Positions 11,523 through 57,653 of a stretch of 64,000 nt of DNA are shown here, one piece after another. Each line of letters opens with the position of its first letter. Within the stretch, counting starts at the first letter, position 1. Both the position numbers and the translations under genes were made by a program. The DNA lies in NCBI GenBank assembly GCA_973895155.1, contig OZ316891.1:16185137-16249136 (forward strand), given 5' to 3'. This DNA is from Marsupella aquatica (Eukaryota; Plantae; Marchantiophyta). The notes beneath the pieces were generated by a model. That model was not told the DNA's origin, searched no databases, and saw nothing but the letters and a program-made list of their open reading frames with translations.

Positions 11523-11780
11523 TTATTGTAGAACCGAGTACGAGATCCCTGCGTAGAGATGCCAAAACCGTTCACCGTCATCAACATTGAACGTTGCAGC
11601 ATCCTCGATATCATCAATGGATTTGAGCTCTCGAACAATGGCCTCAATGTCATTCATCTTCAAATCAAATCTCCCGCAGAGATACCTCTCCCGGACCTGC
11701 TTGTACGTATCTTCCATGGGGACGGGGATAGTCACAATATCTTCAGAACCGAATCGAGAAAGAACGATAGACCGAGACAT
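11523..11780 (-). pseudogene. N-terminal remnant of the MULE transposase
   Basis: MSRSIVLSR...YKQVRERYLCGRF...VDDGERFWHLYAGI aligns with the start of the transposase at 52618; the rest is deleted. Confidence 0.8.
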
Positions 11781-12744: not shown

Positions 12745-15700
12745 ATGGAGGTATTCCCCTCTTCTTCCAGAGGGTATAGTGGGGTTCCTGACCAAGAGCG
12801 AGCTTATTCTGAATCTTCGCAGTCTTCGTTTACTGGTTCAGTCTATACACGTCGTGTAACTCGTTCCTCAAAGTTGTTGCCGCTCACTTCTGTCAGCGGT
12901 GTTTTGGGTCCAAATCCTTTGCGAAGAAAGATGGACAACGTAGACACAATTGCGATCCAGGATGTTGCGGATTGCGCGCTTGCTGAGACTGATCTCATTT
13001 CGAAACATGTCATGTCTTTTGGAAAGGATTCTCGTGGATTTGACAAGGAGCCGCCTCGAATCCCTCTGTGTCGATTGGTTCACATGGAGGTGGTTCGTAC
13101 TCTGCAGAAAGACAGCTCTTCCATCGAGAAGCTGAAAGACTCTTTTTGTAGTATGGGTTACAACTCTTCAATAGGGATGCATTTCTATGTGCAGCCAACG
13201 AATGAGAACGAAATTGTTCTGACCTGTACCCAGGACATTCGTGATTCATGGGATCCAATATGGCAATTGGAGAACAAGAAGTTTGAGGCTGAATGCGAGG
13301 CTGACCCGGATTTTCTCGTCTTCAAGGATAAGATGTTCTCTGTATTCGATGGAAATCACAGGCTGTACTCTTGGACGCTTGTAACAGAGGAGAACCCGGA
13401 CAATCCAAAATATCATCCTCGTGTGCTCTGTACAATATTTAAAGGAGACAAGGGATCTCTCATTGAAATTGAGGCAGCTATGCACACCGTGAATCAGTAA
13501 GTTCTCATGATTTCCAGTTCTTTCCTAAATCTTGCGAGTGCTGTATTTACTAGCGCTCGGCGCTGCTTATACATGAATTGTTTTTCATTGACTCTTACTC
13601 TCAACGTTTGTTCGTGTAGGCTTGGCCAAGCAGTTGTAGAGCCTTCCTGGATCCTGGATGCGGACAGAATCAAACAAATTCTGGCGCATGACCTTGAGTA
13701 TTACAGTAAACTGATTGACCTGGGTAATTTCAAGAAGTTTGAAAGCATTCGGCTGAAAACTCGGAAGGGGTCATGGTATACGAAGAAGATGCCACAAGAA
13801 GCACTTGTTTACATTCTTTGTACGTGAGAATAAGATAAAGTCGTACTCGCATCAATTCAAACTTGACATGGAGGCAGCGGAGGCTCAAGGGAGTCCATGG
13901 TCGGCGGAGGAGATTTCAAAACGGCATGCGGCCATGATGAAAGATGCAACCAAAGATTGGGCAGTGAAGTCTTCAAAAATTACGCCCTTATTAAGTCCTG
14001 AATTTGAAGATTTCCTCAGTACATGTGCAGAAATGTATGCTGTCACAGAGAGAAACAAGAGAGAGAAGAAGCCTGACACCGTTGTATGTACGATGGACCG
14101 CGCACGATTGTTCACCGCTGTTTCTGCTCTAGACCCAAAGTTATGAAGCACTTTACTTGTGGCACATTGCAATCCTGAGCTGCGGAGACAGTTTTTTCAC
14201 CCAGCAAGTGTTAACGATGATCCAGTCAAACAGTGGTGCCACACTTGGATCACTTGGAATAGTGTGGAGGGAATTGCTACTGGCATGTTACATTCATGTC
14301 TACGTAAAGTTGAGCAAACCATGCCCGCGAATAGATTGGAAGAGTGGAATTGTAGTTCGTTTGATGATCTAGTTCAGTTTGTTACAAATGAATTCAAGAG
14401 ATTTGGTGATTCCGTGAAGAATAAGTTCTTTCACACTATGTGGCCTTCAAAGTACCCTGACAAAGAAGATTACACCCAGAGAAACCAGAAGCGAGCGAAG
14501 AGGTTTGTGTATAGGTTCTACATGCACATGGAGGTAACCAAACCTGATTACTTCTGGGCATATCCTGCAGCTTTTATGAAGTGGATTTCAATAAGTGAAG
14601 ATGATGCCTTGGCTGATTTGTACTCTATGTACCCCACGGAGGGCATATTTCCTCCGAGACCAATGACAGAATGGGAGAGAACTCACTGCCCCTGGTATCT
14701 AGATACAAATAGATGGGATTCTCCTTTTGATCAAAGGGAAAAAGATGCCTTCCATAAGCTTTCAAAGTCTCAGATGCCAGCAAAACTTGTGTCCGACATG
14801 AAGCAGGGTCTACTTGACAATGTAGACAAGTCTGCCATAAACTTGCAAACTATCTGTGAAACAACTGTTGTGCATGTGGACCAGAGTCGCAAACCTCGTG
14901 CGAAAGCCAAAGCGGAGCTAGCAGCACCGAGCGAGTCTACTAAATCTGGAAAGAAGAGTAAGTATTGCTATCCATGATTTTGCCAGCCCCAGGCGCTGGC
15001 AAAAAATATTCTGTTGAGGGTATTCTCTTTCTTGGTTAGCGCCAGGCGCTAGCTTCTTTCAATACTTTAAAAGTACTTATTCTAACTACGACCTGGTTAT
15101 ATTTTAGGAGGGAGGAAGTCTAATACGGTGGGAACGGGAGATACGAAAAAGGATGCTACACCTGAAGTTTCCGAGGCAAACACGGGAGCTCGATCGGACC
15201 CCATTACTCCAGTCGATAGAGGGAAGGTTATAGTTCCTATCGACGCCACGAGTACCAAGAAGAAACGAAAGAGAGCTGTCGAAGGTGTCTCGCCATTGCA
15301 TGGTTGAGACAAGCCTTTCTGAATTTTTTGACTCGACGTTCAACAAGGAGGAGAAGCCCGAGTGGGTTAGTGATGTGGAGAAATGGGGAAAAGACCTCGT
15401 TAAGTTGGGATTTAAAGAGAAGGGAGTTGTTTGGGGGGGAAAAGTAACATCATTTGGAGTGGATGTCGGCTTCATTTACCTACCGACCGGGTTCAAACCA
15501 TCTATCATTCATAAGAAGGTTCCTAAATGGAACATTCCAGATCACTCAATGGCTAGATCTTTTTTCAAATCCATGGATCCATTTTTATCAAATGATGGGT
15601 TCCTTGTAATTCTACACAATGGGGAGTACGATCCCATGTCGCAAGTCATTGCTGCCTGTCAGGAGTCAAGGAAATTTCAGTGTATATGCTCGCATAATGT

Positions 15701-16727
15701 TGTGATGTTTGACCCGATGTATGCGGCAAAGACAGACCGAGAGATGTTTACCCTCAGGCTTGACATATTTGGCCGAATTAATGGGAAATGTAAAATTCCC
15801 AAAGACCCCAAATTTCGGCCGCTGTCCATCAGTGAGGACCCTTCGGTTACCAATTTGATCGGACTCTCTTCGCTCAAATCAGATCCATTCTCGCAAATGG
15901 AGTTTACTGGAAATGCTCGTTTGTCTGTGGGTTTTATGCAATCTGTTATAGAGCTTGTCACACGGCCTCGTGATATTTTTATGGATTGGACTGCTGGGTC
16001 TGGAGGCTCTTACATTGCTGGCGACTTATCTGGACGATTTGTACTCGGGATAGAACACCGGAAAGAATTTATTGAAACCGCTTCAAAGGTTTTCATGGAT
16101 TTGTTGTCTCCCAAAGAGATTGCAGTGTTACCTCCACCTGTTCCTACTGCCGACAGAAAAAAAAGAGATAAGCTTCGGTCGGTTCTCAATTTTGATTCTG
16201 ATGATAAATCGAGTGAAGGTGGAGAGGAACAAGGTACAAGAAACTCCAAGGAGGAAAAGGGAGAGCATCGTGCAGCTGCAGATGAAACCGATAGTGATGA
16301 CTCTTCCGAGTAATGTTCATAAACTCGTAAGCTTCTTTCTCCATTCCCGTCAATTCATAACATTTCTTTTGTTGTTTTGGGGAAAGGCGCCTTACAAAAT
16401 GGACTTTGTTATATCAGGTCAGAGTGGAATGCAAGGAGACGATTCAAACTGCGGAGGAAGATCGCGAGACACAACGTAGAAACACCAGAAAAACCGTTTG
16501 TTCTTCCCTCCTATGCAGAGAAAGCCGCAAGGAAAGTAGAAAGTGCAAGGACACTTTGCTGGGAAAACAAAGGTCTTCGGTTACGAAGGGGTGTTGACCG
16601 AAAGTTCATTAAACATCCTTATGTTGATGACTTCTCCCGCAGCCAGTACGTAAATGATGAGGCTGTGTCCACAGACAGATCCCAGAGTACAGATTCTGGT
16701 TCCGACTCAGAATCTTCGGAACCGTGA
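12745..16727 (+). pseudogene. Spliced ParB/Srx-like plus N4/N6 DNA methyltransferase-like fusion gene, copy 1 (4 exons; frameshifts and a stop)
   Basis: Exons 12745-13496, 13620-14957, 15108-16309 and 16418-16727 with GT-AG junctions shared with copy 2. Motifs FSVFDGNHR and FMDWTAGSGG...GRFVLGIE. Lesions near 13822, 14144 and 15285. Confidence 0.8.
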
Positions 16728-16989
16728 GAAGTAGTGGGTAGTTGAGGCTAAATCTTTTAGCAGCGCCCGGCGCTTGTAACATCTGTATTATTTCCCTCTG
16801 CTGAGGGTCCTTTTAAATTGTTGATTTCTCTCTACTTGTTGATTACTTTTGACTTCTGTTCTTTACAAGCGCCTGGCGCTCGCCAAATGGAATCTCTAAA
16901 TGGCCGTTTAGTCTTTGTTGTTTCCTGTCAACGGTCATCGTCATTGGATACCAACTGCCATTTGGATTATGTTCTTTAGTCAGTCATCG

Positions 16990-17370
16990 GAAAACCGTTG
17001 GGGACCATAGTTTTGGGACGATGATTCCATAGTTTAGGGACCGGGCGGAAGGGACGACTATAGTTTCAGTTTAGGTTTGTTTGGGACGACGAGAGTTGGG
17101 GACGTCGATAGTTGAGGACGACGATAGTTTTGGGAGGATGATAGAATGGGACGATAGAACGGGACGATAGAATGGGAGGGGAGACTTTGTTTCGGGATGA
17201 CGATAGAACATGACGATAGAACGGGATGATAGTTCATTTGGGAAGACTTTGTTTCGGGAAGACGATAGAATGGGATGTTAGAGCAGGGCGATAGAATGGG
17301 ACGATACCTGTTACCAAGGCGAAGATAGTTTCGGGAGGCAATAGAACGGGACGATGATAGTTTGATGGTC
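16990..17370 (+). repeat. Degenerate GGGACGATAG-like tandem array inside MULE copy 1
   Basis: Many gacgatag, gggacgatagaa and gatgatag units in about 380 bp; not seen in MULE copy 2. Confidence 0.7.
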
Positions 17371-19543
17371 GTTTCGGAACGGTAGTGTACGCGGACCTTT
17401 ATCTGGCATCTTAGTCTTCGTGGACCTTTCTTTGACCTTTGTCGGCTATAGCACTCGTGGACGACGTTCTTACGGGAGGAGAGGTTACATATTAGATCGG
17501 GATCTTTGAAACATGGCGAGTCAGTATGAGCCAATGGATTGGGAGGCAACTTTTCGTCCTTCTCGTGTGCGTCCGAAAGAGAGCCATTTCAGCTCTTTTG
17601 AATCGCGGATGGAGACTAAAGAAACTGAAACTTCCACTTTTTGGAACCGTCATGCTCTCCCGTATGATGAGGCTATTAGTCCTAGAGAGAAAAACATCCC
17701 TTGGATTGTCGATTCCCCTGCGCCTCCGTTCTCTAGTCGGTTTTCGTCTCACCCGGGAGTTCTTGTTGATGGGGTACTCCCAATCGATTGAAGAGTACAA
17801 GAAATGTTCGGGCGAGTTGATTTTAAGGACAGTAATATTCCTAATGAACATTTTACAAAGGCTGTTCGTCGAGGACCTTCAGAGGGATACGTTCATTTGC
17901 GTGGTCTTGGCTTCAAGAAAGATCGGCGGAGAGAAGCAGCAGGAGTGGATGATGATTGCAACTCGGAAAGCTAGATGGAAATTTTGTTTTGCTGATCGCT
18001 TTAAGCTAGCGCCGGGCGCTGCTAAAGTTTTCCGGATTTTGTGGCATTGAAGTCGACCTTAGCTCTGGCGTTAGGGTTTTCCCGGTTGTCTACTATTTAG
18101 GTTTTGGCTAGCGCCGGGCGCTATTGAAACGACAACGGATTTTGTGGGAGGGAATGGATCTTGACTATGTTGTCTGGGTTTGGACGCATCTTGTCTCCAA
18201 GAAACGACTAGTTTTCTAGTTAGTTTTTGGCTAGCGCCGAGCGCTGTTCATGTATTAGTCGAAAACCTCTGACGGTGTCGACCGTGACTTCATGGATGGG
18301 ATTTTTAGGCCAGATTGTTGATGTTGATAACTGCATTTTGTATCACTTAAGCCGAGCGCGTTTTCTATTTTGCGATAATATATGCGAATGTTTTTTCCGG
18401 CCTTTCTTTTCTACTTGTATTTGTCTTGGATTTTGTGTATCTCAATTGGCAGCCGTCTTTTATGTTTCAAAAAATTGTTTCCGTGTTGTTCTTTTATTTA
18501 TCACGAGGGTTTGGTGGTTTTGCTTTCTATTCTTGTACTTTCAAATGGAGATTTTGAGACCTTTTTTTAAGATCACTGTTCACGACCATCCAAACACTGT
18601 TCACTAGTAACAGCTCCTTTTAACTGGTACCAGAATCTGTTTCCTGTTACTGTTATCTGTTTGCTATCGTTTGTAAATTCCCCGAGTGGGCAGGGCGGGC
18701 GCTGATCTCCAAGTTTAGACTAAGGATCAGGACCAGGAGATGGCCCTGACACTTAGATTAGTGGGATTGCGGATCCACGAGTGAGGGCGACACTTGTGCT
18801 CTTGCCTCGCTGTACATAGGTAGATTATAGTTAGGTAGATTACAGTAAGTAGATTAGGCTTACGCTGCAAGGAATCAGGCAGATCCACAACCAGGATAAG
18901 TACCTGGGCTGCGGGGAGTTAAGGGCCTCTTCTTTAGCAAGTTTTTAGTTGCACCAGCAGGGCTGGGATCAAGTAGTAAGAGAAGCTCTCGGTTAGTTAT
19001 ATAGTGACCCTTGTGTATATTCATGTTTCCTCATACCTAAGAACTGAATAGAGTTGGCCTCACGGCTTAGTTCGCAGAGCTTGTGTATCAGATGTACTGT
19101 TTGTATGGCAAGTGCAAGGTATAACTCAGTCAGAAGGAGTCATTTTGCTATTTGTGTGTCGCATTAACTTGTGTGAAGAGTGCCCACATCAATGAAGGGA
19201 AGTAGCAAGGGAGTGAGAGATGGATGTGTCGAGCTGAGAGAGGTCTTAGCGGCTTAACCAAGCCAAATTGGGGATCATTCCGGCGGCGAAATCCAAACAT
19301 ACCTAATGGAAGACCAGGAGAGGAATACAAGGGAGGGCCTAGAATAGGCCAGCTAAGTATCTCATGACCCGATGAAGGATTTGTCCAATATATGTGTGTA
19401 AAATGTTAATCGTAGTAGTAGAGGAGATTAGCAACGTCCCATGCCGCTAAGCCGCGGAAACGGCCTCGTCAAGAACAAAACCTGCGGGAATCGGCTTGTG
19501 CGGGGGGGTTTCTTGGGTTTGGGGCGCCATGGGACGCACCACA

Positions 19544-22036: not shown

Positions 22037-23505
22037 CTAACTAGTGATATCAAAAGTTCCATTTCCCCATACCTTGTGTACAATAAATGGTCCTTCCCAC
22101 TTAAGTTTTAATTTTCCTTTCTTTATACGAGCCCTTTTCTTACACCACAACACTAATTCTCCTTCATAGAATATTGTGATGTCTCTCTGTTCATCTATCC
22201 ATCTTTTCCGCTGCCCTTGTACATGTTCCAGATGTTCTTCTGCGTTTCTTCTCTTCTCTGTAAGCTCCATCAATTCTCTTAGTTGTTGGGTTAAACTTGG
22301 ATTTTTGTTAATATCATAATCTGTAGCCACTTGTAGACTTGGTAATTCATATTCTGATGGCATCCGAGCTTCTACTCTGAACATGAATTGAAATGGAGTA
22401 TGTCCTATGGTTACTTTATACGCTGTACGAAATGCCCATACGGCTGCTGGTAGTTGTACATCCTAGTCATTTTGCTGCTCATTAATCACTTTTCTTAAAA
22501 CATTCAGTAGAACTTTGTTCGTAGATTCTGCTTGCCCGTTGCATTGTGGATAATAAGGGGTTGAAAATTGATGGTTGATATGATAATTTTCCGTTAATTC
22601 CTGAATAGTGTTATTCAGAAAATGCGTACCTTGATCGCTTACTAACTCTCCGGGTAATCCATACCTTGTAATGATATTTTGATATAAAAACTTTGTAGTC
22701 ACCTTGGCTATATTTTTGCGAGTTGCTATTGCTTCCACCCATTTAGTGGTGTATTCTGTTGCTGCTAAAATGTAATGAATTTGGCTGAACTTGGAAGGTG
22801 GTGTTATCGTCCCAATAAAGTCTAATCCCCATTTCTGGAAAATATAAGGAGCAATAATAGGCCTGAACTCCATACTCTCTTTGATCGGCCCTGTACGTTG
22901 ACACAAATCACAAGTCTTAACAAATTCCCGGGTATCCTTGTGCATTGTTCTCCACCATCGTCCTTGTTGCAATATTTTCCTCAATGTGATCTTTGCACCA
23001 AAATGACCTCCTCCTAAACCTTCGTGAGCGATTACTAATGCTTCCTGCTTCTCATCTTCAGGAACTACTCTTCTGAGTATGTCATCGGGTCCTTTGTAAT
23101 AAAGTGTATGATTAATCAAAGTGTAAGGCTTAACCTTATATGCATATATTTTCCTTTCCTTATTGGATAATCCTTCTGGAAACTCAGCTGTTCGTAAATA
23201 TCTCTCTAAATTGGTTCCATCATCCAGAGTAACCAATTTTACCGGGTAGTTTTCCCTTTCCTCTTGGAATAATCCCATGTCAGGTAGTTGATCATCTTCT
23301 ACAGTGGATACTTCCCCTGATTCTAGTCTACTCAAATAATCTGGTATAACATGTGTTTTTCCTGGTTTGTAAATATTTGTGTAATCAAACTCAGCCAATA
23401 AAAGAATCCATCTAGCCATTCTTCCTGATAATTGAGGTTTGTTTACTAAGTTAACTAGAGCGTTGTGGTCTACGAAGAATACAAAACGGTTCCCTAACAA
23501 GTAGT
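22037..23505 (-). pseudogene. Gypsy RNase H C-terminus plus integrase
   Basis: HYLLG..F....DH.AL, RMARWILLLAEFD, HEGLGGGHFG...CDLC, WGLDFIG, VSDQG, NGQAESTN and W.GPF motifs; premature stops. Confidence 0.9.
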
Positions 23506-24730
23506 GCAGACAATGAGGCCCATTGAGTAGCGGTCGTGTCATAGAGCAAGTGCGGCTTTGTATGGGGGGGTTGTTGGTGGTGCGAGGGGCACTAAGTTGC
23601 TTTCTTGAGGTATTCTGTGGAGGCGTTCGGGCACCATAGGCACTTAGGCGTGGGTGTTGGGATTGGTGAGGGTGCTGGGTGGCAAGGTCCACCACCATGT
23701 TACCTGAAAACCCAAGCGTTTGAGCACCTTGCCTTTCTCCCTTGGAACACTTGCAGATACTATGGGCAGGACACAATGGAGTTTATTCAAAACTTTGACA
23801 AAGCCCGTCAAGAGACCTGTGCGCACAAATGAGTAATGTCCTTGAACAATGCACGGCTAACGCTCATCTTTGGCTTACCCAAAGGAAAGGATTGGGTGGA
23901 GTCGTAGGCACCAGCGGGCAGAGGAGCCACGTACCAGTCCTCTAGCTTCCTATCTGAGGGGTCCGTGGACAATGGTTTCCTAATGCAAACTTGCATCATC
24001 TCAGAGGTGGCAGGGCGGCTTGAGTTCCAACGGTATGCGCTCCACATGATGGAGCAGTGGGGAGAGATATCTACTACCCAGGTAATTTAGGTCGAGAATT
24101 ACCGGCCTAGGAAGTGGGCTTCATTCTTTGTCAAGAAGTTCCACAAGGAGATGGAGCGACGAAGGAAGATGTTGTACCTTGGGGGAAAGGCGTACCTAGC
24201 AAGCCACATAGAAATCATCATAGAGTGGCACGCCCGTTTCAATTGCTGCACCCTTCCCGGGTGCAACGAGTCCAAACTCACCCGGCCAGGTGGGTCGTTC
24301 CGGCTCAAGAGAAACGACCCCAACCCAAGGCCCAAAGCCCAGCATCAGCGGCCCCCATCCCTGCTCCTTCCCCAAAGCCAATCGAAGGGACTTCAGGTTC
24401 CGTGCCAGACACAAAAATCATCAGGACCTTGGACGCATAGAACCAAGCTTGAACACTCGTCGTAGCCGACCCTGTTGAAGCTGACCCAAACTGAAAGCCC
24501 CAGTCAAGGAGGAAGCACCTACATATCCAACACCGGCACCAATAGAAACCCCCTCCTTGGCGGATCTGGCTGCCCCTATTCTCCTCGCCCCAAAGCTGGA
24601 TTTGTCTGCCCCCCCTGTGATGCCTAGACAGGAATCACTCGGCCGGTTAAGTGGGTAAAGCAGGAAGGCACCCTAGGAACACCTTAGTATAGGGACAAAA
24701 CAAGGAAAATATAAACAATTAGGGGCAACC

Positions 24731-37688: not shown

Positions 37689-37990
37689 GGGGTATTTACA
37701 AACGACAGGAAACAGGAAACAGTAACAGGAAATAGTTACTGGTAACAGGAAATAGTTACTGGTAACAGGAAAGTGGGTGGTAATTTTTTGGGATTTTATT
37801 TTGGAAAATTTTTTTTTGGGGGAAAAAAAGTTTTCTTTGTTTTGGTTTGTCATCATTATATTGCTAGCGCCCGAAGCTAACAATAGCAGCGCTTGGCGCT
37901 CGGAAAAAAACCCATGATTTTAATTATTTTGAAAAATAAGACTTTAAATGGTACATTTTTAGATCATGTTTTTTACTGGTAACAGATTGT
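37689..37990. mobile_element. Orphan terminus of the ParB-MTase MULE family
   Basis: GGGGTATTTACAAACGACAGGAAACAG matches the family end; degenerate palindromes at 37865 and 37887. The right boundary is approximate. Confidence 0.7.
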
Positions 37991-44300: not shown

Positions 44301-45626
44301 TCGTTTAAATGTTGGATAGTAAGTCCAAGTCTATTATGCTCTGTAAATAGATAGAATGTGCGCCTGGCTCTTCAATGCCAATTCCATTTTTTATACCTCC
44401 GTGTCTCTCAGCGCTCATTACTGCCCCAAGATTGCAGACTGAGTGAACATCCTTTTCTTGGCTAAAGTAGTTCACGTATGCTAAAGGAAGGCATTTCATA
44501 TTAGCCACATGCTTCTACCATTGCAATTTTGTAATATTTCCGGTCGAGTCATTCTTATGGGATGGCTTTGTTCGGGGCTTTGTTTTAATTGATGTTCATT
44601 CTTGTCTCTTCTCTACAGGTGAAGCGCAAGGCTAGGCAGACATTTGCTAGGCTTGTTACACTAGCGGAACAACAATTGGGGAGAAAGTAGTGGGGAAAGC
44701 AGTCGGTCAGCTTTTAAGTGTTGGTGAGTATGCTTAACTTCTTGAAATCTGTACTAGGTCCTTGGATGAATACCTTGTGTTATTTGCCTTATTCTTCAAT
44801 GACAGGATCCCACATGTCTTTTTGCAGTTTACTAGCACGCGTCGGGATTGGAGTTGCGCTTATAGCAGGGACCCAAACAGCGGCAAAGAATACTCTGAGG
44901 GACTGAGGGTGTGTCAATCAGCGCCAACAAATCATAGTGAGTTTATCTAGATTTCCAAAATGCTGACTGGTTTATGGTGAAGTTTCTATCGCGCCCTCCA
45001 GTCTAAAACAGAGTGCGGGAGCAGAGCAGATTAGAGCAGAGCAGAGTAGAGAGTGGAAAGCTCCAAAGTCTAGTAGTTTAGTCGGGACATAACCCATGTG
45101 CTATTTCTATTGTTGTCATGCATGGCGGAGCGGTACCTCTCGTTCTGCTCTCTCCTCCACTTTGTCTTTGTGAGCGCTTGCTTTGGTCGGGGCTTTGATG
45201 CGTCTTTGATTTAACTACCTTTGTGGGTTGAAGCATTTTGTTGAAGCTCCGCGCATCAGTGTTAGCTGTGTTAATTTATGCTTTGTAAGGTCAAGTTGTT
45301 TGCACCTAGGTCAAAGCTCTCGCGCGAAGAAATTTAGCTTTAGCTTGCTACTACATTTGGTAAAGCTTAGCTTTAAAACTCTATTTGTGCTTGGGCTTTT
45401 TGAGCAGTCGGTGATCATTGAATTTGATGTACTGAAGTTTCAGGAATTATGGCTCCTGCAGTTAGCTTGACCTATCATTCGTTTTGTTTTACAGGTTTGG
45501 AGGTGGGCCGAGGCCGGGGCTCAACGCTTGTCTACTAGTATCGTATTTGGCCGCGGGGTTACATCACTCTAAGGTGACACATCATTTTGCATATTAATTG
45601 TTTCTCCTTCTCAGCTATTTTATGAT

Positions 45627-46301
45627 ATGATTTGTGACTACTATCATCTGCTTTGTAGTCCTGTATGTCATTCCGAGTCTCGTTCTTTTATTGAATGGAT
45701 TTGTTTTTCTTCTCCGCAGGTGAAGTGCAAGGGCTGCCCGGAAAGTGTGAGTTGTCTTGAAAGTTTAGGCACATTAAGGTCTGGGATTCAGGTTCTTGGC
45801 GTCAATTGTCGTGTGAGTAGAAGTCCCAGTAGAAGTCAATCTATAAGCAATATGTCACGTGAGACAAAGGTCAATTCCATATGGACCCTTTCTGTGCAAG
45901 TCATAGGGGCATTTGTGTGCTCTGCGGTCGGATTGTGTACTGAAAATTTACTGTGGACTCTGTTGGGTTTGCTTAGCCAACTATTTCAATTTTTGCATGA
46001 AATTTTGGAGCGATTCATCGCTCTTGCGCATCCACCCCTAGAGATGGCTGATGTTGGGGGTGCAGAGACCCCTCATCCTGACATTGTCGGTCATGAAGCT
46101 TTGCCTCTGCAGAAGACTTCTGCACCGTTAGTTTCCCATTATTATGCAGTGTCTAGAGGCCGTAGGCCAGGCATATATGAATGTCACGAAGCCGCTGACA
46201 AACAAGTCCTAGGTTTTAGTGGGAATAGTCATAGGTCATTTAAGACTAGAGCACAAGCAGAGGATTGGCTAAAGACGCAGATCTTGGCCGGGTTGGCATA
46301 A
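45627..46301 (+). CDS. Small ORF or terminal exon with an RNase H1 hybrid-binding / caulimovirus viroplasmin-like domain
   Basis: YYAVSRGRRPGIYE......KQVLGFSGNSHRSFKTRAQAEDWL matches the HBD signature; several candidate splice sites upstream (43768-45719). Confidence 0.65.
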   Translation: MICDYYHLLCSPVCHSESRSFIEWICFSSPQVKCKGCPESVSCLESLGTLRSGIQVLGVNCRVSRSPSRSQSISNMSRETKVNSIWTLSVQVIGAFVCSAVGLCTENLLWTLLGLLSQLFQFLHEILERFIALAHPPLEMADVGGAETPHPDIVGHEALPLQKTSAPLVSHYYAVSRGRRPGIYECHEAADKQVLGFSGNSHRSFKTRAQAEDWLKTQILAGLA

Positions 46302-47540
46302 TTGTCAATGTAAGACTTGAGTTCATTTGAATACGAGACAAATTTGGAATTTCAGGTGATGCTGTGTGTTCTTGCATGCAACTGAAGGCCAACTTGACTC
46401 CCTTTCTTATGTTTTCCTCATGTGCACATATACCTACTCCTTGCGAGGTGTTTACAAAAGGCAGTAAACAGCAAACAGCAAAATATAACAGGAACTGGTA
46501 ACAGCAAAATTTCCTGTTTTGGGAGCACATTTCTCCTGGTATTGTGGCAAAATTTAAAAAATCCATTCCTAAAATACTGATAATTATGCAATGCCGAATA
46601 TTAGCGCCGGGAGTCTACAGGAAAAATAATCACAAACGCATCATGCCGAATACTAGCGCCGGGCGTTAAAACCCAAAATAATGACACATTAATCGCCCAA
46701 ACATGCCGAATACTAGAGCTGGCCGCTTCCAATTCTTTGTGCAAAAAATCACGAGAACCTAGGATTGATGTTCAGGCTGAGATCCAAGTAGAAACCAAAC
46801 ATTAATAATAGTCTAAGTTCAATATCAAAGCACAGAGATGTAGGACTTAACCAAGGTATCTGAGTCATAACTTCTAAAGGGAAATTGAAAGAAAAGAAAC
46901 CCGAGATTTTTTATTTAAGTGAAACATATTGTCCTCGGTGTACAAATATTTCTACTTAGGAACACTAAAGTTTCCAGAACAATTGTAACTAGCGCCAGGC
47001 GCTAACACTCCCGGTGGGTGCCTCCTCGTACAATGTCCTATCTCGAAGAGTGACATTCATCATCAATCCCAGAGTCCTGACAATCTGGATCTTGGTGGAA
47101 ACCATCTAATCGGAAGTTGACATATGCTCTCATGGGCCGTCGATAAACTGGCCTTCCATGGAATCGAGAAGGAGAAAAATGAGAGAAATGGACTTTGAAA
47201 GAAACAATAGTATGTCAATAAGGGGCTTGGATTTATCGTTATAGGTCCTCTTGTCGGTACCAGTCTTCGAGTGAAAGCCAAATGACACTAGGGCGGAAAC
47301 GACAAATATCAAACGGAAGCTTCCGACGTGTTTTTTGGGTAGCGGCGGGCGCCAATTAACCAAGCCGAGGAACCCACACAAAGGACGGTACTCAAGACCA
47401 CATTAACCATTGAATGGAAGGGGCAACATCCCTAAAACTCAATTCATTTTTAATAAATTCAATAGCGCCCGGCGCTAACAAAAACCAAGGGCATACTCGT
47501 ACAGTTGGGAGGAAGTTTGACCTGAGAGAGGAGAAAATTG

Positions 47541-50500
47541 CTACCCTTCAGAGTCAGATTCTGAGCTCTCATTCTGGGAGCTATGAGATCTGTCGGTTGA
47601 CTCTGCCTCATCATCAATATACTTGCTTCTAGAAACATCATCTACGTAGGGGTTCCTCATGAACTTCCTGTCTACTCCCCTAAGAAGCCTAAGTCCTTTT
47701 GTTTCCCAGCAGAGCGTTCTAAATTTCTCTACCTTCCTCGCGATGTTCTCAGCGTATGATGGCAACACAAACGGCTTCTCGGGAGTGATGATTACATTTC
47801 GAGCCACTTTCCTCCGGAGTTGAAACCATTTTCTTTGGTTCCATTCTGACCTGCTCAAAAGAGAAGCAGAAGAGAAAGAGGAAGTAAGTACTTAACCGAT
47901 AGAACTGGCGGAATTGAAGATTAGCCAACAATTGAAAGGATAAAGGAGCTTACGAGAGACAAAAATTACTCGGAAGACTCTTCGCTGTCCTCCGTTGACC
48001 CATCATGTCGGGTTTCCTCTTTCCTGCCGTCATTGACATCCTCAGGAACATCATCTTCTGGCGTCCCATCATCTTCGTCCGAATCAAAGTTGAGGACAGA
48101 TCTAAGTCTATCTTTCTTTTTTCGTCTGGTTATTTGAGGAGGGGGAGGTTGTGTCTCCAAAGGTTTGGGAGAAATGAGGTCCAAAAAAATCCTCGAAGCG
48201 GTCTCAACAAACTCCCAACGATTTTCTAACCCGATGACAAAACGGCCCGAGTAATCCCCAGCAATGAACGTACTACCTGAGCCGACGGTCCAATCAATTA
48301 CAAGATCCTTAGGTATTGTAAAGAGTTCATGGACAGTTTGCATAAAACCAACCGGCAGTCGGGAATTCCCAGTAAAATGGAGTTCAGGACAATGATCTTC
48401 CTTCAAAGATTGTAGCCCAATAAGGTTCGAGATTGAAGGATCTTCAGCGCTAGATAATGGCTTGAATCTTGGATCCTTTGGGACCTTTCCTTTAAAAGAA
48501 AATCGACAAAATATGTCCAGTCTAAGAGTGAAGACCTGCAAAAGTTGACGAACCAACTGGATTTCAAAAATCTTTTACTCATGAGAGAAGACCTCCTAAG
48601 AAAGAAAGAGTAGCCCGACATTTACCTGGACATCTGTCTTGGATCTGTACATTGGGACAGACATGAAAACGTTGTGCGTATTGATGCACATGAACTTCTT
48701 GGATTGCTGACATGCAGAAATGACCTGGGAAATCTGATCGTGGTCATCCGAGTATAAGATAGCGAGCATTCCGTCATCGGAAAGGAAAGGGTCCATCGCC
48801 CGAAAGAATGATTCGGCTGCTGTGTGATCTGTGCAATTCCATTTCGAGACCCGACGGTCAACAATTGTGGGTTTCAAACCAGTTGGGAGATAGATGAAAC
48901 CCGCATTCACCCCAAATGATCGTTCCTTCCCACCTCGAATGATTCCTTTATCTCTACACCCCGATTTGATCAAATCCTTACCCCACTTCTCAGCGTTTGA
49001 GACCCAATCTGGCTTCTCTTCCTTACTAATTGCACTATCAATAAATTCTGCCAAGCTTGATTCAACCATACAGTGTCTTCCGAGTTTGGTCTTGAAAGTC
49101 CCCACATCCCGTTGGATACCGGCCCCAGAAGCATTATCTCGCAAAGATTCCCAGACATCGACGGTCCTTTTCTTCTTCTTCTTTGTGCTTGTAGCATCCA
49201 CAGGAACTATAACCTTCCCCTTCTCAACAGGGGTGATGGGGTCTGGATTGGCACCAGTGTTGGCCTCAGAGACTTCTGGTGTTGCATCGACTTTTGTGTC
49301 ATCCGTGGCGGCATCAGATTTTCGACCACCTACCCAAAATGGTGTCAAGCACAGAAAGAGTGTTAGCGCCAGGCGCTGACCAAACACCCACATTAATTTT
49401 GGGAAATAAGACACATTAAACTCACGACACATGATAGCGCCAGGCGCTAACAAAGAAGGAAGTCGGAAAAAGGAGGTGTAGCTTACATTTTTTCCCAGAC
49501 TTGGCACTAGCACTTGCCACAGGGGCATCCGCCTTGGCTTTGGCTCTTGGTTTTCGGCTTCGATCAACATGAACCACTGTGGTTTTGCATTTTTTTTGCA
49601 ACTCAGTCATTGACGAGTTGACGTCCCCCTCAATTCCTTGCTTCATGTCGGAGACAAATTGTCTCGGAACTTGGGATTTAGACAGTTTATGGAAAGCATC
49701 CTTCTTAGTGTCGTCAAAAGGAGAATCCCATCTGTCGGTGTCAAGATACCAAGGGCAGTGAATTCTCTCCCACTCTGACAATTTCCTCGGTGGAAGTATA
49801 CCCTCAGCCGGATACATCGAATACAGTTCGGCCAAAATGTCTCCATCTGCGCAGATGACCCAATTCTGGAAAGCAGCTGGGTAAGCCCAAAAATAGTCAG
49901 GCTTCACAATCTCCATGTGCATGAAGAAACGATAGACATATCGTTTTGCTCGCTTTTGATTCTTGAGTGTGTAGTCTTCCTTGTCCGGGTACTTGGACAT
50001 CCACATCGTATTGAAAAACTTACCTTTCACTGCATCCCCAAATTTTTTGAAATCATTGCACACTATTTCAACGAGTGAATCATAAGACTCACACTTCCAT
50101 TCCTCCAATCGATTGGAAGGAATTATTTCACTGATTTGCTGGAGGGCAGTCTGCAGCATACCAATAGCAAATCCCTCCACGCTATTCCAAGTTTGCCAAG
50201 TGTGGCACCACTGCTTCACAGGGTCATCACTAACACTTTGTGGATGAAAGAACTGCTTCCTGAGCTTTGGCGTGCAATGCGCTACTAACAAAGTGCTCCT
50301 CAATTTGGGGTCAAGGGCAGAGACTGCTGTAAATAACCTGGCATGATCCATGGTACAGACAACCGCATCCGGTTTCTTCTCGCGTTTGTTCACCTCGGTC
50401 ATCGGATACATCTCAGCACAGGTTGTCATGAAGTCTTCAAACTCTGGACTCAACAAGAGAGTGATCTTTGAGACCTTGATCGCCCAATCCTTCGTTGCTT

Positions 50501-51657
50501 CTTTCATCATGACCGCATGTCGTTTGGATGTCTCTTCCTGAGACCAAGGATTTCCCTGAGCGGTAGCCGACTCCATGTCCATCTTGAATTGTCGAGAATA
50601 GGATTTAATCTTATTCTCGCATAAGATATACAGAAGTGCTTCTTGAGGCATTTTCTTGGAATACCACGATCCTTTGGAGTCTTCTGCATCACCTGCCCAA
50701 ACTTCTTGAAGTTTGCCCCATCGATGATTGATTTGTAGTATTCTAGATCGTTGGACAAAATCCTCTTAATTCGGTCTGCATCAAGTATCCAAGAAGGTTC
50801 CACCACGGCCTGTCCAAGTCTACAAAAGAATTTGTCAGTCAATAGCGCCAGGCGCTAGTAAAAACTACACTATAAAAGATAAGGATAAGTGAAATTCAAC
50901 AAGAGACTTACTGGTTCACAGTATGCATAGCCGCCTCAATCTCAATCAAAGATCCCTTTTCACCCTTGAAGATAGTACATTGCACACGCGGGTGATACTT
51001 GATATCTTCCGGATTTTCTTTCGTAATGATCGACCATGCGTAAAGTCGATGGTTACCATCAAAAACATAAAACATCTTATCTTGTAACACCATGAAGTCT
51101 GGATCGGCCGCACATTCAGCTTCAAACTTCTCGTTCTCGGCCACCAACATCGGGTCCCAGGAAGCTCGAATTTCTGGAGTACACGTCTGGACATTCCCAT
51201 TCGAATCTGTCGGCTGGACATAGAACAACATTCCGATTTTTGAGTTGTATCCTGTGCTACGAAAAGAGTCCTTCAACTTTTCAATTGAAGGACTTCCCTT
51301 CTGTAAGGTGCGGACAACTTCCATGTGAACCAAGCGGCACATTGGAATCCTTGGGGGGTCTTTGTCGTGCCCTCGAAAATCTTTGCCAAACACCATAACG
51401 TGCTTGGAGATAACGTCGAACATCGTCAGCGACATTTCTCCTCAATCTTCCACAGCGTATGTGTCGAGATCGTCCATCTTCGCTCTCCTGCTCTTCGAAA
51501 ATGTGACTACAGAGACTGTTTCGGGAGCTTGGGATGTTGTAGTCACTCGACGACTGTAAACAGATCCAGAAAACGAGCACTCGGATGTCTGCGAATGGAT
51601 CTGCTCTCTCTGCCCGTTAGCACTATACCCATGCGAGGTAGTGGGGAGAAGGTCCAT
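47541..51657 (-). pseudogene. Spliced ParB/Srx-like plus N4/N6 DNA methyltransferase-like fusion gene, copy 2 (5 exons, ~1,200 aa; two frameshifts)
   Basis: Exons 51657-50912, 50819-49487, 49329-48626, 48535-47970 and 47850-47541 (all GT-AG). Motifs FYVFDGNHR and VIDWTVGSGSTFIAGDYSGRFVIGLE. Frameshifts near 51440 and 50670. Confidence 0.82.
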
Positions 51658-52617
51658 GTTTCTCAGACACGAAGTGCTTCACGATCGTGATGAGTACCTC
51701 ATTCGTACCGTACTTCTTCTAGAGAATTCTTGCACGAAGAACCTCCGAAACGGAACCTAAATACAGCGGACAAGGGAGGGGGGGAGAGTATCATCTCTAA
51801 ACTATCCCCTTGCTACATTGATATCTATCTCTTGAGCGCCACTTGTCAATTCTGGATTAGTTGTTCGAATACCATTGGCATATCTTCGACGTTACGCGAC
51901 CTAACGTTACCGTTGAATATGACCGTTAAAGAACAGTTTGTTGAATTTAATATATATTCCTAGTTCAAATCTGATATTGGTCAATAGTAGCGCCAGGCGC
52001 TACTCAAAATCATCAGAATTTAAACCATAAAATTTCCCAAAGTTAGGTCAACATTCACCCTCAAGTATACAATAAAAAGCCAAATGAATACAATTTTTGA
52101 ATATTTTTCCATAAATGAATGTCATGATTACAGTTTTGGATTAGCGCCCGGCGCTAATATTAAATGGGCACATTTTGGTAATATTTTAGATAATATTAAA
52201 AAAATTAGCTACAAACATTTAGTATTTATTCTGAAACCCCGGATAAAACATTCCAGTTTTATACCATAATTTACGGTGTGTGTTTGAGTAGCGCCTGGCG
52301 CTACTCATATATTTCACCATTTTGGGTCCATGTTGAAGGTAGGATGTTTGAGTAGCGTCGGGCGCTACTCAATTAACATGATTTAATTAACATGATTATG
52401 CTCTTTGGAAACGGACATCTTAGGCTCATTAGTGTAAATGTTGTTGACATAACGACAAAAAACATTTATTGTGTCAGATGTGCTTTCGATCGGTAGTGTT
52501 TCTGTCGTATTATAACGGCTCTGACAAACGGATTATTCACTATGAATACCATTGTGTACATTCGAAGACGTCATTCATTATCGTGAACTGAGTGTTTTTG
52601 GGTTGGATGATCTTAAA

Positions 52618-55600
52618 ATGTCGAGGTCAATCGTTCTGACGCGTCCGTCTACCGGTGACCTTGTATCCATTCCATTGTCGGCCAATGACGTATACAAGCA
52701 AGTTAGTGAAAATTATCTCTGTGGGCGCTTTGGTTTGGATTTGAACGACATTGAGGACATTTTGGAGGAGGGAAATGGAGATGAAGCGTCTAATTTCACT
52801 TCTTCTTTTGATGTTGATGACGGGATTCGTTTTTGGCACCTGAATGCAGGAATTTGGTATTCTATTGTCATTCAAAAACCAGTCGCATCCGATCTCCCAT
52901 CTTCATCCAAACCCTTTGTTGATGTTGTCCTGCTTTCAGATAGCGATGATGATGGACCTGCTTTGCCTGAGCGTAGTGCTAAATCCCCTCACACCGTTGT
53001 TAAACAGGAGGTTACCCCTGTTAAACAAGAGGTTACAGCAGTTTTTACCAAAAATTCCATTGTGTATCGGAGAAGTGCAATGGATACCATTCTCAAGTCA
53101 ATTGGTTCCAGTGAAATCTCGAGGTTCATCGCGGCTGGGGACTTCTTCCATGAACAAGTTGACTGTTTGCCAAAGAAATACAATGGAAATATTGTATTCG
53201 AGTTGCCTCCTGCGACGACAGCTCTTTCGAAGGGGTCACGTCTACGCGACATGGACCAGTCAAAGGATTGCTACATGTGGACCAGAATATTTCCTACATC
53301 AGCTAATGTTCATCCCAAGAAATATTGGGAATTTGGTAAAGTAACGTGCACTGGTTCCATTGAGTGTAGGAATAATACGTGCGACTATTTTCAGCGAAAG
53401 AAAAGGAGGAACCAGAAGGCCTGGGGTGGAACCCCCAAACTTGGCGGGCAACATCGTGTTGGCTCCTTCATTGACGAAGGTGGAGTTGTTTGCCAATTTT
53501 GTGATCAAGTTCCGTTTTGTGTCCAATCCTGTCCAGCAAGGTTATTTTACATGTACCCCCAGGTTCTAGTTGACTCAGAAACCTGTACTCACATGTCCGG
53601 CTTGGCAATTCATATGGGGATCCACAACCATCCTTCAAGAAAGGTGTTTTCTCGGAGCGCAGAGAAGATTGTTGAGGAGGTTATCAAAAAGAAATTGGAA
53701 GGAAATCCAATTTTCACCCCTGCTGGTGTAAAAAATGTGGCGATAGGGTCCTTTGTAAAGTCCTTGTGTGAAAGTATGGAAGATATTCAAGATATTGAAG
53801 AAACAGAGATATTTGAGTCTCTCATGGTAGTTTCCACACCCCAGAAGTTTGCGTCCCTCTTTCGTAGTGTTAGACAGGACCAGAAAGGTCGAGGTGAACT
53901 AGATTTTCTTGTTCGGTATCAAAGAAATATCAACATGCCTTTCCTCCAAAGGTACCTCCTACCAGGTCAAGGATCTCAAGAAGACCGTCCTCACATATTC
54001 AAGATGACTTCGATCGGCCATGGATCAGGCGTCGATCTTTTGAGACAAATGCAACCTGGTGGAAGTCTCGAAGGTGCTTGGGTAAGTTTTGATGTGATGA
54101 AACGGCTTACAAAAGACTAGGTTACTTTTAGTGCGCATATTTATGATCACAACTATCGCGCTCTGTGTACCTTATTCACCTGCGAACTAAAAGCAGAGGA
54201 TACAGAGTCGTTTGAGAAGGCTTGGAGACTAATGATTGAGGTGTCCAAAGAGAATGGATTAGAAAATCCAATTATTCATGGATTCATGGCGGACAATGCT
54301 CAAGCTGGTTGGCTGGCAGTCCGAAATGTCTTTTTTGGAGGGCATCCAAACCCTGAGCGTGAGCGAACTGACGCATTCCATTTCTACCAAGCCTTCCATC
54401 GCCATTCGATTGAAGGAGTGATTGAAGATAGTCAAGCAGAGCATCGTAGGCTTTGGGATAAGATGCGAAATGCCCCCACGTTTGTAGAGGCTTACAGAAT
54501 TTCAAGGGAGATTGATTTGTGGTGGCAGTCGGGTAACTGTGTCCCCGGGAAGCTCCGGATGCTCCAGAGTTGGATTTCATGGTGGGTCGTCAGGTGGAGA
54601 CAATGGGGAAATTTTATTCGTTTGGTAAGTTAGTTTACTTTGCTTTCCGCTCTTTAGGTATTGCAGTGCTATATTCTCATTTCAAAATGTTTGTATCCAT
54701 ATTCAAATATTACAATACCATAGCATCCTTTAATACTAGCGCCTGGCGCTATCATTTATTCAAACTGTCATATGACACAATAGGACAAAATAAGTTGTCC
54801 CTTAATGTACAGTGCCAGTTTTGACTTCTAGGGACAGAGTCCACTTCACTAGCGCCCGACGCTAGTGTTTTCTTGTTCTGTAACAGACACTTTATTCTAT
54901 GTGATTGCAGAACAAGAGTGTCAAAGAAGGGGCTAAGATTCCTAATTGTACAGGATCAGAGTCCGTGCACGCAGGTATGAAAGCATGGGTAATGAAGAAA
55001 AAGGTTGGGCTCTTTGAGGCATGTGAAATGGACCAAAATCGAGCTATTTCTCAGGTTGCTGCTTACACTGCGTATCGAAAAGGGTTGCATAGAGGAAAAG
55101 GTCCCACAATTTGGGAACTCGCTTTCTGATCAGCGGACCAAGCAGGCTCCCCCAAGTTGTATGAAGACGCAATGAATATGCTACTGTCCTACGCTGCCGA
55201 GTTTGACTTGGAGAGACGTGCACCTCTCAATGGAGACGTTGTCACCAAGTCTTTGAAGAGGAAAGGACATGCATCTGGGAATATCTCGCCACAAGACTCC
55301 CATAGGCATGATAAAATCCTTGTCACCTCGCCCAATACTAGATCGATGAAAAGGAAGAATCTTAATTGCACGGCGTTTGATGCTATCCCTGGCCCCACGC
55401 CTCAAGTTGATCCTGTTGTTAATCTGTCTGGAAGTGACATATTGTGCGGTGGAGAAGATGTCGATTTCAATACCCCTCCTGCTCGAGACCGAACGCGTTC
55501 AACGAGGCTTCCCCAGACTGCTCCCTCCGTGCTTCAGCAACCGTTACAAGAGTGTCCTGTCCGTGAGACGGAGGTTGCTCTAGCTACATGGCAATTATGT

Positions 55601-56437
55601 CGAACTTCAAAATTTGGCGCTGGTCCTCAGTGCAACGGATCATTTTCCCGTAATTCTGAAAGAGATGAGTGTTGCAATCGCGTGAAAAAAGTTGGATTTC
55701 CCTCACCACATGGTGTTATCGGAATTGTTGTCAAAGGTCAATGGATTTTCAGGGGGGAACCCATAACCGAAATGATTTGGTTTTGCCCAAACAATACATG
55801 TTACAGAAGCCGCCCGCGTCGAGGTGTCTTGAATTTGCCCCCTTTCCCTGATGTTCTTCCCGTTTTGAAAGGGACAAATGTTTCGGAGGACGAGCTGCAA
55901 TATCTTCTTGACAACGGAATCTCCCTAGTGCACGGAAATGAACTTACAACTAGACCCCCGTCAGATTTTGATCTTCGAATCAATGTCAATATCTTTCCAG
56001 AACATGTGAATCTTCTCGAACCCAATGTTCGTCTCCGAAGCCGGAATGGGAGGAATACGGTTCCTCGGTCAAATCTTACCCAGGGTCACATGAACAGAAT
56101 TGCGTCTGCAAAAAAACAGACGATGTACATTCAGGGAGAGTGGGATGTTGCGATTGGGAATGCATGGGGAAAACAGTTTAAGGTGCAAACGCACGAAAAT
56201 ATGCGGACGCCAAATTGTTACTTTGTTCAAATTTGCATTTTCCCCACTTGCTCGTGTGAGGATTTCTACCGGCGACATTCCCGGAAACATTCATATATGC
56301 CTTGCAAACATTTGTATTGGATTTTCCTTACCGTTTTCAAACTAGACGTTGAGGAATCTACATTGACCAGCCAACCAATTCTCACTGTTGGAGAGGTTCG
56401 GCTCATATTAGAGAGGCAAAATGCTCATCGTTTATAG
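52618..56437 (+). pseudogene. Mutator/IS256-type DDE transposase (~1,180 aa) with an N-terminal Cys/His zinc domain and a C-terminal SWIM finger; two nonsense mutations
   Basis: Exons 52618-54624 and 54911-56437. Motifs SFDV..., FMADNAQA, DAFH, SESVH and CSCEDF...PCKH. In-frame TAG at 54118 and TGA at 55127. Confidence 0.85.
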
Positions 56438-57653
56438 CATGAATCATGATGATGTAGGTTGTATTATTGGTCCAAACGGTTATATTGATTTTGTCGTATG
56501 TCAATGGTATAGTGTTATTGATGTCGCGTCATGTTTTGTTAGCGCCAGGCGCTGGTAAATTTTTCGTCTGGGCTACACCGTTAAATGTCATTGTGTTGTG
56601 ATTTATGTTCTCAACGCCAACTATTTGTTTCCTTGAATAACAATAAGATAGCGCTAGGCGCTAGTCAATCCGTTGTTCACTTTTATTTTGGACCACATAA
56701 TGACATAAAGTTTTGGGTTGCGTTGATTTTGTATTATTTTCATATATTTTGTTGCCGATTGTGGTGGGACCTACCATTTTGTGCGCATTTCTTGACATTT
56801 TTATGTATGCTCCCCCTTGTTTGTGTTGGGATATAAGGTTCAATTATTATGTGGTTCAGCAATTCATTACAAGGTATCCTCCCTCACCGCAATGGACTAA
56901 CTCCAACTTCAACTGCTGATTGTGTGTTCTTTCCCTTGGTACAAGATGTTTTTTCCTGGTAACAGCATAAGGCAAACAGGAAAAGTATTTCCTGTTTTCC
57001 TGTTTGCTGTCTCCGTCGCTATACCCCTCCTTGCTTCCAAATGTCTTTGCCCAAGTCTATCGTTGCACACTATAACGACTTATTGATGTTGTGAAGTAAA
57101 TTTGTGTGCAGGTCTCTGAATCTGCCACCAGATTCCATATCCACCAGATTCCTTGGTCATCCACCTACATCAGGCAAGCAATGACCAAAACTTGGCGAGG
57201 TATGGTGATCACCCGTTCTATGAGGAGAGCAGAGGACACTCTAACCAGACGTGTACGTAGACTGTACAAGTTGATGGTTCGGGATGAAGTCCTCCCTAGA
57301 GGTCTAGGGGTCCTGTGCTACTACTGAGACATTGCCCCTGTCAGACATAGCAATCTGCCTCGAGCACTCCGACGCGTCCCAAGACCTAAACGTCTGCCCA
57401 TATACCTTCAATTTTGTGTGAAGACCGATGGAGTGCCTGACGCCTCCAAGGCTCAGCTTAATGCCTGTATTCATGAATTGACTGCAGAGTGCACTATCTG
57501 TTCCCAAGACCCGGCACTTGATGAGAATGCAAAGTTGAATCAGCTTGGTCGGATGGCCCGTTTCTGTTGTGTGGTTTATAATACACATCCTTGGGTGAAT
57601 CTGTCCATACCTTAGGATGGCCCCAATTTTCACGGTACGGTAGTTTAGGTTAC

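Follow-up and report, generated by a model that had tools for sequence, protein, structure and literature searches.

The question raised by this locus is what an accessory protein combining a ParB/Srx fold with a DNA-methyltransferase (MTase) fold might do for the transposon that encodes it, and whether the short palindromes dispersed through the non-coding DNA of that transposon are the sites at which it acts. The element, here called E1, occupies 10,582 bp (46445–57026) of a 64,000-nucleotide stretch from the liverwort Marsupella aquatica (contig OZ316891.1 of assembly GCA_973895155.1, positions 16,185,137 to 16,249,136 of the forward strand); the whole of this stretch is referred to as the window, and coordinates are numbered from its first letter. 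Our answer, drawn from sequence, structural modelling and analogy, is a tentative one that we place somewhat short of an even chance: the accessory protein would bind the palindromes, which are of the TAGCGCCNGGCGCTA type, and protect E1 from CG methylation by the host through occupancy, not by writing N4-methylcytosine (4mC) or N6-methyladenine (6mA).

A transposon with a conserved accessory gene

E1 is a DNA transposon copy, provisionally Mutator-like, flanked by the 8-bp target-site duplication (TSD) CTCCTTGC, read in the sequence at 46437–46444 and 57027–57034 (both on the plus strand). Contigs from three of four public runs (X1, X3 and X4) join 46436 directly to 57027, with eight letters in common, and the duplication and this empty site together confirm E1 as a real insertion with the boundaries that the preliminary description had given it. 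A second, diverged member of the family, E2 (11282–18684), lies in the same window in the opposite orientation and has an 8-bp TSD of its own, GAGTGGGC (11274–11281 and 18685–18692). The transposase of E2 is reduced to a 5′ stub; its accessory gene (exons at 12745–13496, 13620–14957, 15108–16309 and 16418–16727), which is broken, is the same gene as that of E1 minus intron 3.

The accessory gene of E1 lies on the minus strand, divergent from the transposase-like gene, and comprises five exons with GT-AG introns and ∼1,219 codons, in agreement with the divergent five-exon gene of ∼1,200 residues first proposed. Exon 1 (50912–51657) encodes a low-complexity leader followed by the ParB/Srx-fold domain (51441–50912, with the motif DGNHR at 51046–51060). 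Exon 2 (49487–50819) encodes a middle domain of ∼440 residues; exon 3 (48626–49329) a basic linker and the N-terminal half of the MTase fold, with YLPT, in place of DPPY or SPPY, in the slot of motif IV (48881–48892); and exon 4 (47970–48535) the C-terminal half of this beta-class fold, with motif I as DWTVGSG (48275–48295), the acidic residue of motif II and an acidic tail. The conserved tail encoded by exon 5 (47541–47850; LPSYAE ... YIDDEA) is 69% identical to that of E2. Acidic FxDDEA motifs like that of the tail occur in chromatin and elongation factors.

Both genes of E1 are broken. In the accessory gene there is a premature stop in exon 1 (51442–51444), which arose by a CG-to-TG change, and a one-base frameshift in exon 2 near 50672. 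At 51444 the contigs of most other copies have a sense codon, and contigs from all four runs include an extra base at 50672, indicating that neither lesion is family-wide. No intron-skipping joints were shown among the contigs placed for the empty-site and lesion checks.

Comparison of E1 with E2 gives proportions of synonymous differences (pS) of 0.83–0.94, which is saturation, and of nonsynonymous differences (pN) of 0.11–0.22 in every part of the accessory gene; the two MTase halves have a pN of 0.22 at a pS of 0.83–0.94. On this sequence comparison the gene, MTase domain included, is under purifying selection. Its domains are also found linked outside the window: the ParB and middle exons in L002, one of six metagenome loci (L001–L006) to which we return below, the middle and MTase domains in four named proteins, and the MTase domain and tail in five. 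Relatives as distant as those in Riccia and Ceratodon conserve the tail, as LPSYAE...(F/Y)(V/I)DDEA, in single proteins that also carry the MTase fold. The middle exon has four homologs at 35–44% identity, and in several of them the exon ends coincide with its own. In canonical ParB clamps that bind parS, the NTP-binding fold is followed by a helix-turn-helix domain that binds the site and by a C-terminal domain for dimerisation. The middle domain has no Pfam match and no Atlas match of at least 0.9 when queried through the homolog P0002; a resemblance to clusters of papillomavirus E2, with a best Atlas score of 0.79, fell below lead level and was rejected.

Palindromes in the non-coding DNA

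The 15-bp palindrome TAGCGCCNGGCGCTA occurs 28 times in the window within two mismatches, against 0.03 copies expected from 100 shuffles. Fifteen copies are in E1, 12 in E2 and one at a third terminus of the family (37689–37901, plus strand), which carries two degenerate palindromes (37865 and 37887) and whose partner end was looked for and not found; there are none elsewhere in the window. Two further copies in E1, at 46602 and 46714, have four mismatches, and the earlier count of about 16 was thus a fair one. All 15 copies of E1 are non-coding, although non-coding DNA makes up only 32% of the element. Four lie 3′ of the accessory gene (46654, 46990, 47340 and 47463, together spanning 46654–47477), two in its intron 2 (49364 and 49435; 49364–49449), one in its intron 1 (50843–50857), four between the divergent genes (51988, 52142, 52289 and 52353; 51988–52367), two in the transposase intron (54737 and 54850; 54737–54864) and two 3′ of the transposase (56540 and 56649; 56540–56663). 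E2 has matching sites, with one palindrome in intron 1 (13551), two in intron 2 (one at no mismatch and one at three) and five in the interval between the genes.

Outside these sites the non-coding DNA of the two elements aligns at or near the level of shuffled sequence (0.53–0.58 compared with 0.52–0.56; in intron 1, 0.72 where shuffles reach at most 0.71). Almost every short stretch that does match locally between them is a palindrome. The best match that is not a palindrome is a 27-bp stretch 5′ of the accessory gene (51905–51931 in E1 and 12506–12532 in E2), which is 93% identical and forms a candidate promoter element. Of the 56 half-sites of the palindromes, 55 keep the arm positions AGCG, and 55 have a purine two bases beyond the pattern searched for; the centre base is free. 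Such conservation is expected of a site bound by a dimer. We conclude that the palindromes are likely to be under selection as protein-binding sites.

Comparison was extended beyond the window to the six metagenome loci. In L001, whose ParB exon is 39% identical, the same intron 1 holds two copies of a different palindrome and none of TAGCGCCNGGCGCTA; L002 has one partial look-alike. No palindrome is evident in L003, nothing is repeated in L006, and L005 is a bacterial ParB-like gene. In L004 a 662-residue ParB-like open reading frame (ORF; 430–3187), with a weak match to DndB (E 4e-4), represents a distant relative. The sequence of this locus is eukaryote-like, and the same layout is seen there, with three copies of a perfect palindrome of 22–30 bp and a downstream ORF.

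The N-terminal ParB/Srx fold

The hallmarks of ParB/Srx proteins quoted for the N-terminus in the preliminary description are present in the sequence, and the fold was checked structurally. An AlphaFold2 (AF2) model of the domain, built from an alignment of 17 rows, has a predicted local distance difference test score (pLDDT) of 88.9. When this model was compared with 48,161 chains by VIA-align, 14 matches reached a Z-score of at least 2, and 13 of these are of ParB/Srx fold, judged from their descriptions. The best is KorB (PDB 8qa8; Z 6.8, root-mean-square deviation 3.0, 95 aligned), and other ParB/Srx matches include PadC, Srx, SerK, SbnI, SspE, BrxU and Spo0J; the best unrelated chain has a Z of 2.1. 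In a Foldseek search the top ten matches are likewise all ParB/Srx proteins (sulfiredoxin, ParB and KorB), with E values of 0.14–0.39. The motif DGNHR is invariant in all 17 rows and agrees with the GxxR of ParB Box II. Judged by this model, the N-terminus of the accessory protein has the ParB/Srx fold.

Sequence searches with the ParB exon and the 17-row alignment gave no meaningful match in Pfam or among PDB sequences, and no relative was confirmed in viral contigs (80 pattern matches) or prokaryotic genomes (24). ParB-fold proteins are reported to bind CTP, ATP or GTP, with no sequence rule that predicts which (PMC12704722); for the E1 protein CTP is a candidate ligand that the sequence does not single out.

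The Atlas look-alikes of the ParB region (50911–51441, minus strand) include fungal clusters (score 0.95) in which DUF3723 is found in 31% of members. DUF3723 appears together with Starship elements in the literature, and the resemblance of these clusters to the ParB region suggests that this family of Starship cargo may also have a ParB fold.

A methyltransferase fold that has lost its catalytic motif

Exon 4 matches PF01555, the expected N6_N4_Mtase family, with an E value of 1.4e-6 and 28.9 bits, above the cut-off of 26.7, and the homolog P0075 matches positions 2–212 of the same model. A profile of the accessory MTase family aligns to CcrM residues 75–267 (190 residues; E 4.9e-9). The beta-class motifs noted earlier in the C-terminus are present and in the beta-class order IV-...-X-I-II, and we conclude from these alignments that this region has the fold of a beta-class N4C/N6A amino-methyltransferase.

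The active site is another matter. A search of 1.84 billion representatives returned 101 hits, of which 41 aligned rows span motif IV; none of the 41 has the catalytic motif [DNS]PP[YFW], and none has an aromatic residue at its fourth position. The slot is instead occupied by forms such as ALPT, YLPT, FLPN, DLPS, DPPT and DAPE, with YLPT in both E1 and E2; a Trp just after it is common in the family. The register of the slot was confirmed against the four canonical DPPF domains of P0072 and P0106. Among the 101 hits the canonical motif is found, at any position, only in P0072, P0106 and P0122, which match solely through the half that binds S-adenosylmethionine (SAM); there is no SPPY protein. 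The SAM side is partly kept, with the first Asp of motif I present in 60 of 62 rows and an acidic residue in motif II in 57 of 60, counts that include a few canonical prokaryotic domains. On present sequence evidence a conserved pseudo-methyltransferase is the best interpretation of the domain. The suggestion that the protein marks the element with 4mC or 6mA is therefore unsupported, since motif IV is missing from every one of the 41 rows that span it.

Of 20 hits looked up by name, none is algal, and those with a species name come from Calypogeia fissa, Riccia sorocarpa and Ceratodon purpureus. In a tree of 16 MTase rows, E2 groups with the Calypogeia rows at a support of 91/89, not starred. 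A query of longer proteins with the MTase domain found none among 1,615 candidates, a result that carries little weight. An MTase model from an alignment of three rows had a pLDDT of 34.7 and was not used. Identity with the liverwort enzyme DN4MT1 was rejected because MpDN4MT1 keeps TSPPY (bioRxiv 10.1101/2021.02.12.428880), and a comparable beta-class clade from bryophytes is not described in the sections consulted of Iyer et al. 2016 (PMC4738411).

CpG composition of the elements

The composition of the two elements was compared with that of the rest of the window after the palindromes had been masked. Counts of CG and GC dinucleotides are 367 and 366 in E1, 280 and 247 in E2, and 1,657 and 2,385 in the remainder, corresponding to CpG/GpC ratios of 1.00, 1.13 and 0.69. 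Fisher tests, in which sites are treated as independent, give p values for the CpG excess of 6e-6 for E1 and 1e-7 for E2. In blocks of 3 kb the ratio is 0.88–1.11 within the elements (5 blocks) and 0.42–0.94 outside them (15 blocks), and four of the five element blocks lie above all 15 outside blocks. This lack of CpG depletion fits long-term low CG methylation of E1 and E2, of which it gives a hint. For the earlier proposal that E1 is protected from host silencing, this hint is indirect.

The transposase-like gene and the family

The transposase-like gene of E1 runs on the plus strand in two exons with 1,177 codons, and has two in-frame stops. Features assigned by eye are, in exon 1 (52618–54624), a Cys/His-rich N-terminal part, Asp492, Asp559 and a D-x-x-H at 585–588, with a stop at codon 501; and in exon 2 (54911–56437), Glu688 in SESVH and a SWIM-like CxC...CxH at 1116–1136, with a stop at codon 742. 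MULE transposases are DDE enzymes, often with a SWIM finger. The protein of E1 has no match in Pfam or among PDB sequences, also when read through the first stop with X. An 8-bp TSD fits hAT and KDZ/Zisupton elements as well as Mutator-like elements (MULEs). In MULEs the TSD is 8–11 bp, a range that includes the 8 bp of E1 and E2, and long terminal inverted repeats (TIRs) are usual without being obligatory, since non-TIR MULEs exist (PMC6446971). The assignment of E1 as Mutator-like, made in the preliminary description, is kept as provisional: TSD length and the spacing of the motifs seen by eye fit MULEs, but no profile match confirms it.

The ends of E1 (left, 46445–46564, plus strand; right, 56907–57026, minus strand), related by a weak end-to-end alignment, are poorly matched to each other and have short, imperfect terminal inverted repeats rich in AACAG, unlike those of long-TIR MULEs and compatible with non-TIR MULEs. 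The left end holds no palindrome. AACAG reaches 33–58 per kb in five 120-bp ends of the family, compared with 1.4 per kb inside E1, and is a candidate transposase site. A 5-bp TSD with GAGG...CCTC ends was rejected because both E2 and the empty site show 8 bp. In run X1, 2,320 contigs were placed on E1 (a depth that is not a copy number) in identity bands from below 90% to at least 99%; judged by this spread, E1 is probably one of many copies in a family that has split into divergent subfamilies.

Further features were noted in and around the two elements. Intron 3 of E1 (48536–48625) has no palindrome and is absent from E2; many relatives start or stop at its position, and E2 may therefore have lost it. 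A decayed small ORF is common to E1 (47038–47300, minus strand) and E2 (17496–17975, plus strand) on the 3′ side of the accessory gene, with a local score of 74 compared with a shuffle maximum of 53, and is a possible third gene. E2 has at 17000–17400 a short degenerate tandem repeat of GGGACGATAGAA-like units that is not in E1. The flanks are retroelement-like, with an ORF that has an RNase H1 N-terminal domain (Pfam) just to the left of E1 (45573–46301, plus strand) and integrase/RNase H remains at 9301–10089 and 22466–23782 (both on the minus strand).

Possible function of the accessory protein

In the mechanism that we favour, it is the accessory protein, and not the transposase, that would recognise the 15-bp palindromes of its own element. 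The ParB fold would act as a nucleotide switch, governing loading and then spreading along the element by sliding, as in VirB or KorB, and the dead MTase fold may serve as a module that binds DNA, SAM or a partner. The outcome would be anti-silencing, the element being kept out of host CG methylation. There are precedents in VirB, a CTP-dependent antisilencer of ParB type (PMC10770331), and in VANC, whose binding motifs lie in non-coding DNA of the elements that encode it and whose effect spreads (PMC10398659). A wider proposal is that bryophyte transposons carry a sliding clamp, gated by nucleotide and joined to a dead MTase, that loads on palindromes private to each family and shields the whole element from CG methylation by the host. 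Protein and site would co-diverge, and plants would have a second anti-silencing system, built independently of the first; this we regard as doubtful, though well worth entertaining.

Several observations weigh against these proposals. The Foldseek matches are no stronger than E 0.14, and the best VIA-align Z of 6.8 is below 8, the caution level of that tool. Co-divergence of protein and palindrome rests on the two copies in L001 and the partial look-alike in L002. The CpG test covers two related elements in one window, with sites that are not independent; one outside block reaches 0.94 and one block of E1 is at 0.88, the contrast between DNA transposons and the repeats around them may have other causes, and the premature stop of E1 itself (51444) arose at a CG. 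Finally, no DNA-binding domain was found by Pfam or Atlas in the middle region or elsewhere in the accessory protein, and a transposase can itself activate its own copies in a sequence-specific manner (bioRxiv 10.64898/2026.08.24.746577).

These last two points favour a different owner for the palindromes, namely the transposase, with its Cys/His-rich N-terminal domain, the accessory gene then doing something else. Two palindromes do lie in the transposase intron; however, the element ends have the AACAG motif of their own, E2 retains its palindromes with only a stub of the transposase, and ParB-like genes with palindromes recur beside unrelated transposases (Plavaka and Sola1) and in L004, and we consider transposase sites rather unlikely. 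If the accessory protein is the reader, it could still act to the opposite effect, as a repressor that damps the divergent promoters in the manner of KorB, or as a compactor that pairs the ends. KorB, the best structural match, is a ParB-fold long-range silencer (PMC11790492), four to five palindromes stand between the divergent genes, and compaction would bring together ends whose short, imperfect repeats match poorly. A common fold is nevertheless no proof of function, and a repressor role alone does not explain why CpG is not depleted; we judge such a role unlikely, while giving it a serious hearing.

An enzyme with a rebuilt active site, writing a protective mark near the palindromes (4mC, 6mA or methylation of protein or RNA), would account for the purifying selection on the MTase domain, the retention of motif I and motif II acidic residues noted above and the common Trp after the motif IV slot. 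It is improbable given that motif IV is absent from all 41 rows, that E1 and E2 lack both the D/N/S and the aromatic residue, and that MpDN4MT1 keeps TSPPY while no SPPY protein is found among the 101 hits. It is very improbable that the palindromes are neutral by-products or RNA or DNA hairpins, and the gene a passively captured cargo. In favour of this reading, most changes away from the consensus are transitions, and these preserve a wobble pair on one of the strands; yet the palindromes have survived, in transcribed as well as intergenic DNA, over a divergence that saturated synonymous sites, their sequence is fixed without compensatory change, a purine is conserved outside the arms, and the accessory gene is under strong purifying selection.

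Comparison with known systems

The accessory proteins of algal transposons resemble that of E1 and bear directly on its novelty. In Ectocarpus, a brown alga, the element Sola1-1_Ec32 encodes a 1,104-residue protein with ParB-like and N4C/N6A-MTase regions on the strand opposite the transposase, and its authors propose that the protein binds and modifies its own element (PMC12477816). The two proteins, likened by description, agree in length (∼1,100–1,200 residues), domains and orientation; Sola1-1_Ec32 differs in its algal host, Sola1 transposase, 4-bp TSD, 282-bp TIR and length of 21.5 kb, its protein is predicted to be an enzyme, and the excerpts of the report mention no palindrome array. 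Plavaka, Mutator and Zisupton elements of red algae carry PAG2 (PF01555) and PAG3 (ParB-like), with PAG homologs also on Mutator elements of Chondrus, and PAG3, like the E1 protein, has a ParB-like domain beside inverted repeats that are proposed as its sites (bioRxiv 10.1101/2025.02.11.637652). In these elements separate genes encode the ParB and the MTase domain, with fusions to a 2-oxoglutarate (2OG) oxygenase and a SET domain, and the repeats are tandem arrays adjoining PAG3, whereas the palindromes of E1 are dispersed through its introns. Common to E1 and the algal elements, as compared by description, are ParB-like and PF01555-like domains on a DNA transposon, apart from its transposase.

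The novelty first claimed for this architecture was therefore overstated: it has been published for algal elements, fused in one case and split in the other, together with the hypothesis of self-binding, and E1 is its land-plant variant. We found no description of a ParB/MTase transposon gene from a land plant in the literature searched, which left Repbase and subscription journals out of reach; the Bostrychia supplements may list more.

Other systems share single features with E1. VANC, of the VANDAL MULEs, is also an accessory protein encoded by the element, with family-specific non-coding motifs and a spreading effect; its motifs lie in tandem repeats, and its function has been shown by experiment (PMC10398659). 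VirB, which counters silencing (PMC10770331), and KorB (PMC11790492) share the ParB fold; each is loaded at specific sites, slides and controls genes some distance away. The same two folds as in the E1 protein are fused in phage proteins that join ParB to N6_N4_Mtase (PMC12704722). MpDN4MT1 is a liverwort protein of the same MTase class, and differs as a host enzyme with TSPPY (bioRxiv 10.1101/2021.02.12.428880). VirB and KorB belong to bacterial plasmids and have no MTase fold. They have a Box II of GERR type and a helix-turn-helix (HTH) domain, compared with DGNHR and the unassigned middle domain of the E1 protein; VANC is not known to have a ParB or an MTase domain.

To the published algal cases the window adds a complete, TSD-bounded land-plant element together with its empty site, and an enzyme fold that is conserved though dead. 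It also adds a palindrome that has outlasted synonymous saturation and in a distant family seems to have been replaced by another, and, in base composition, a hint that the element is protected. The family-wide loss of motif IV shifts the published guess of self-methylation towards shielding or scaffolding. A self-binding role of the ParB-like protein was put forward for red and brown algae, groups in which genetics is not easy. The land-plant family makes the idea testable in tractable plants: its 15-bp site is sharp, two diverged elements lie in one window, and there are relatives in liverworts and in a moss. If eukaryotic chromatin does allow a ParB-type clamp to load and to spread, this would represent a new route of counter-silencing and a possible tool for site-directed control of chromatin.

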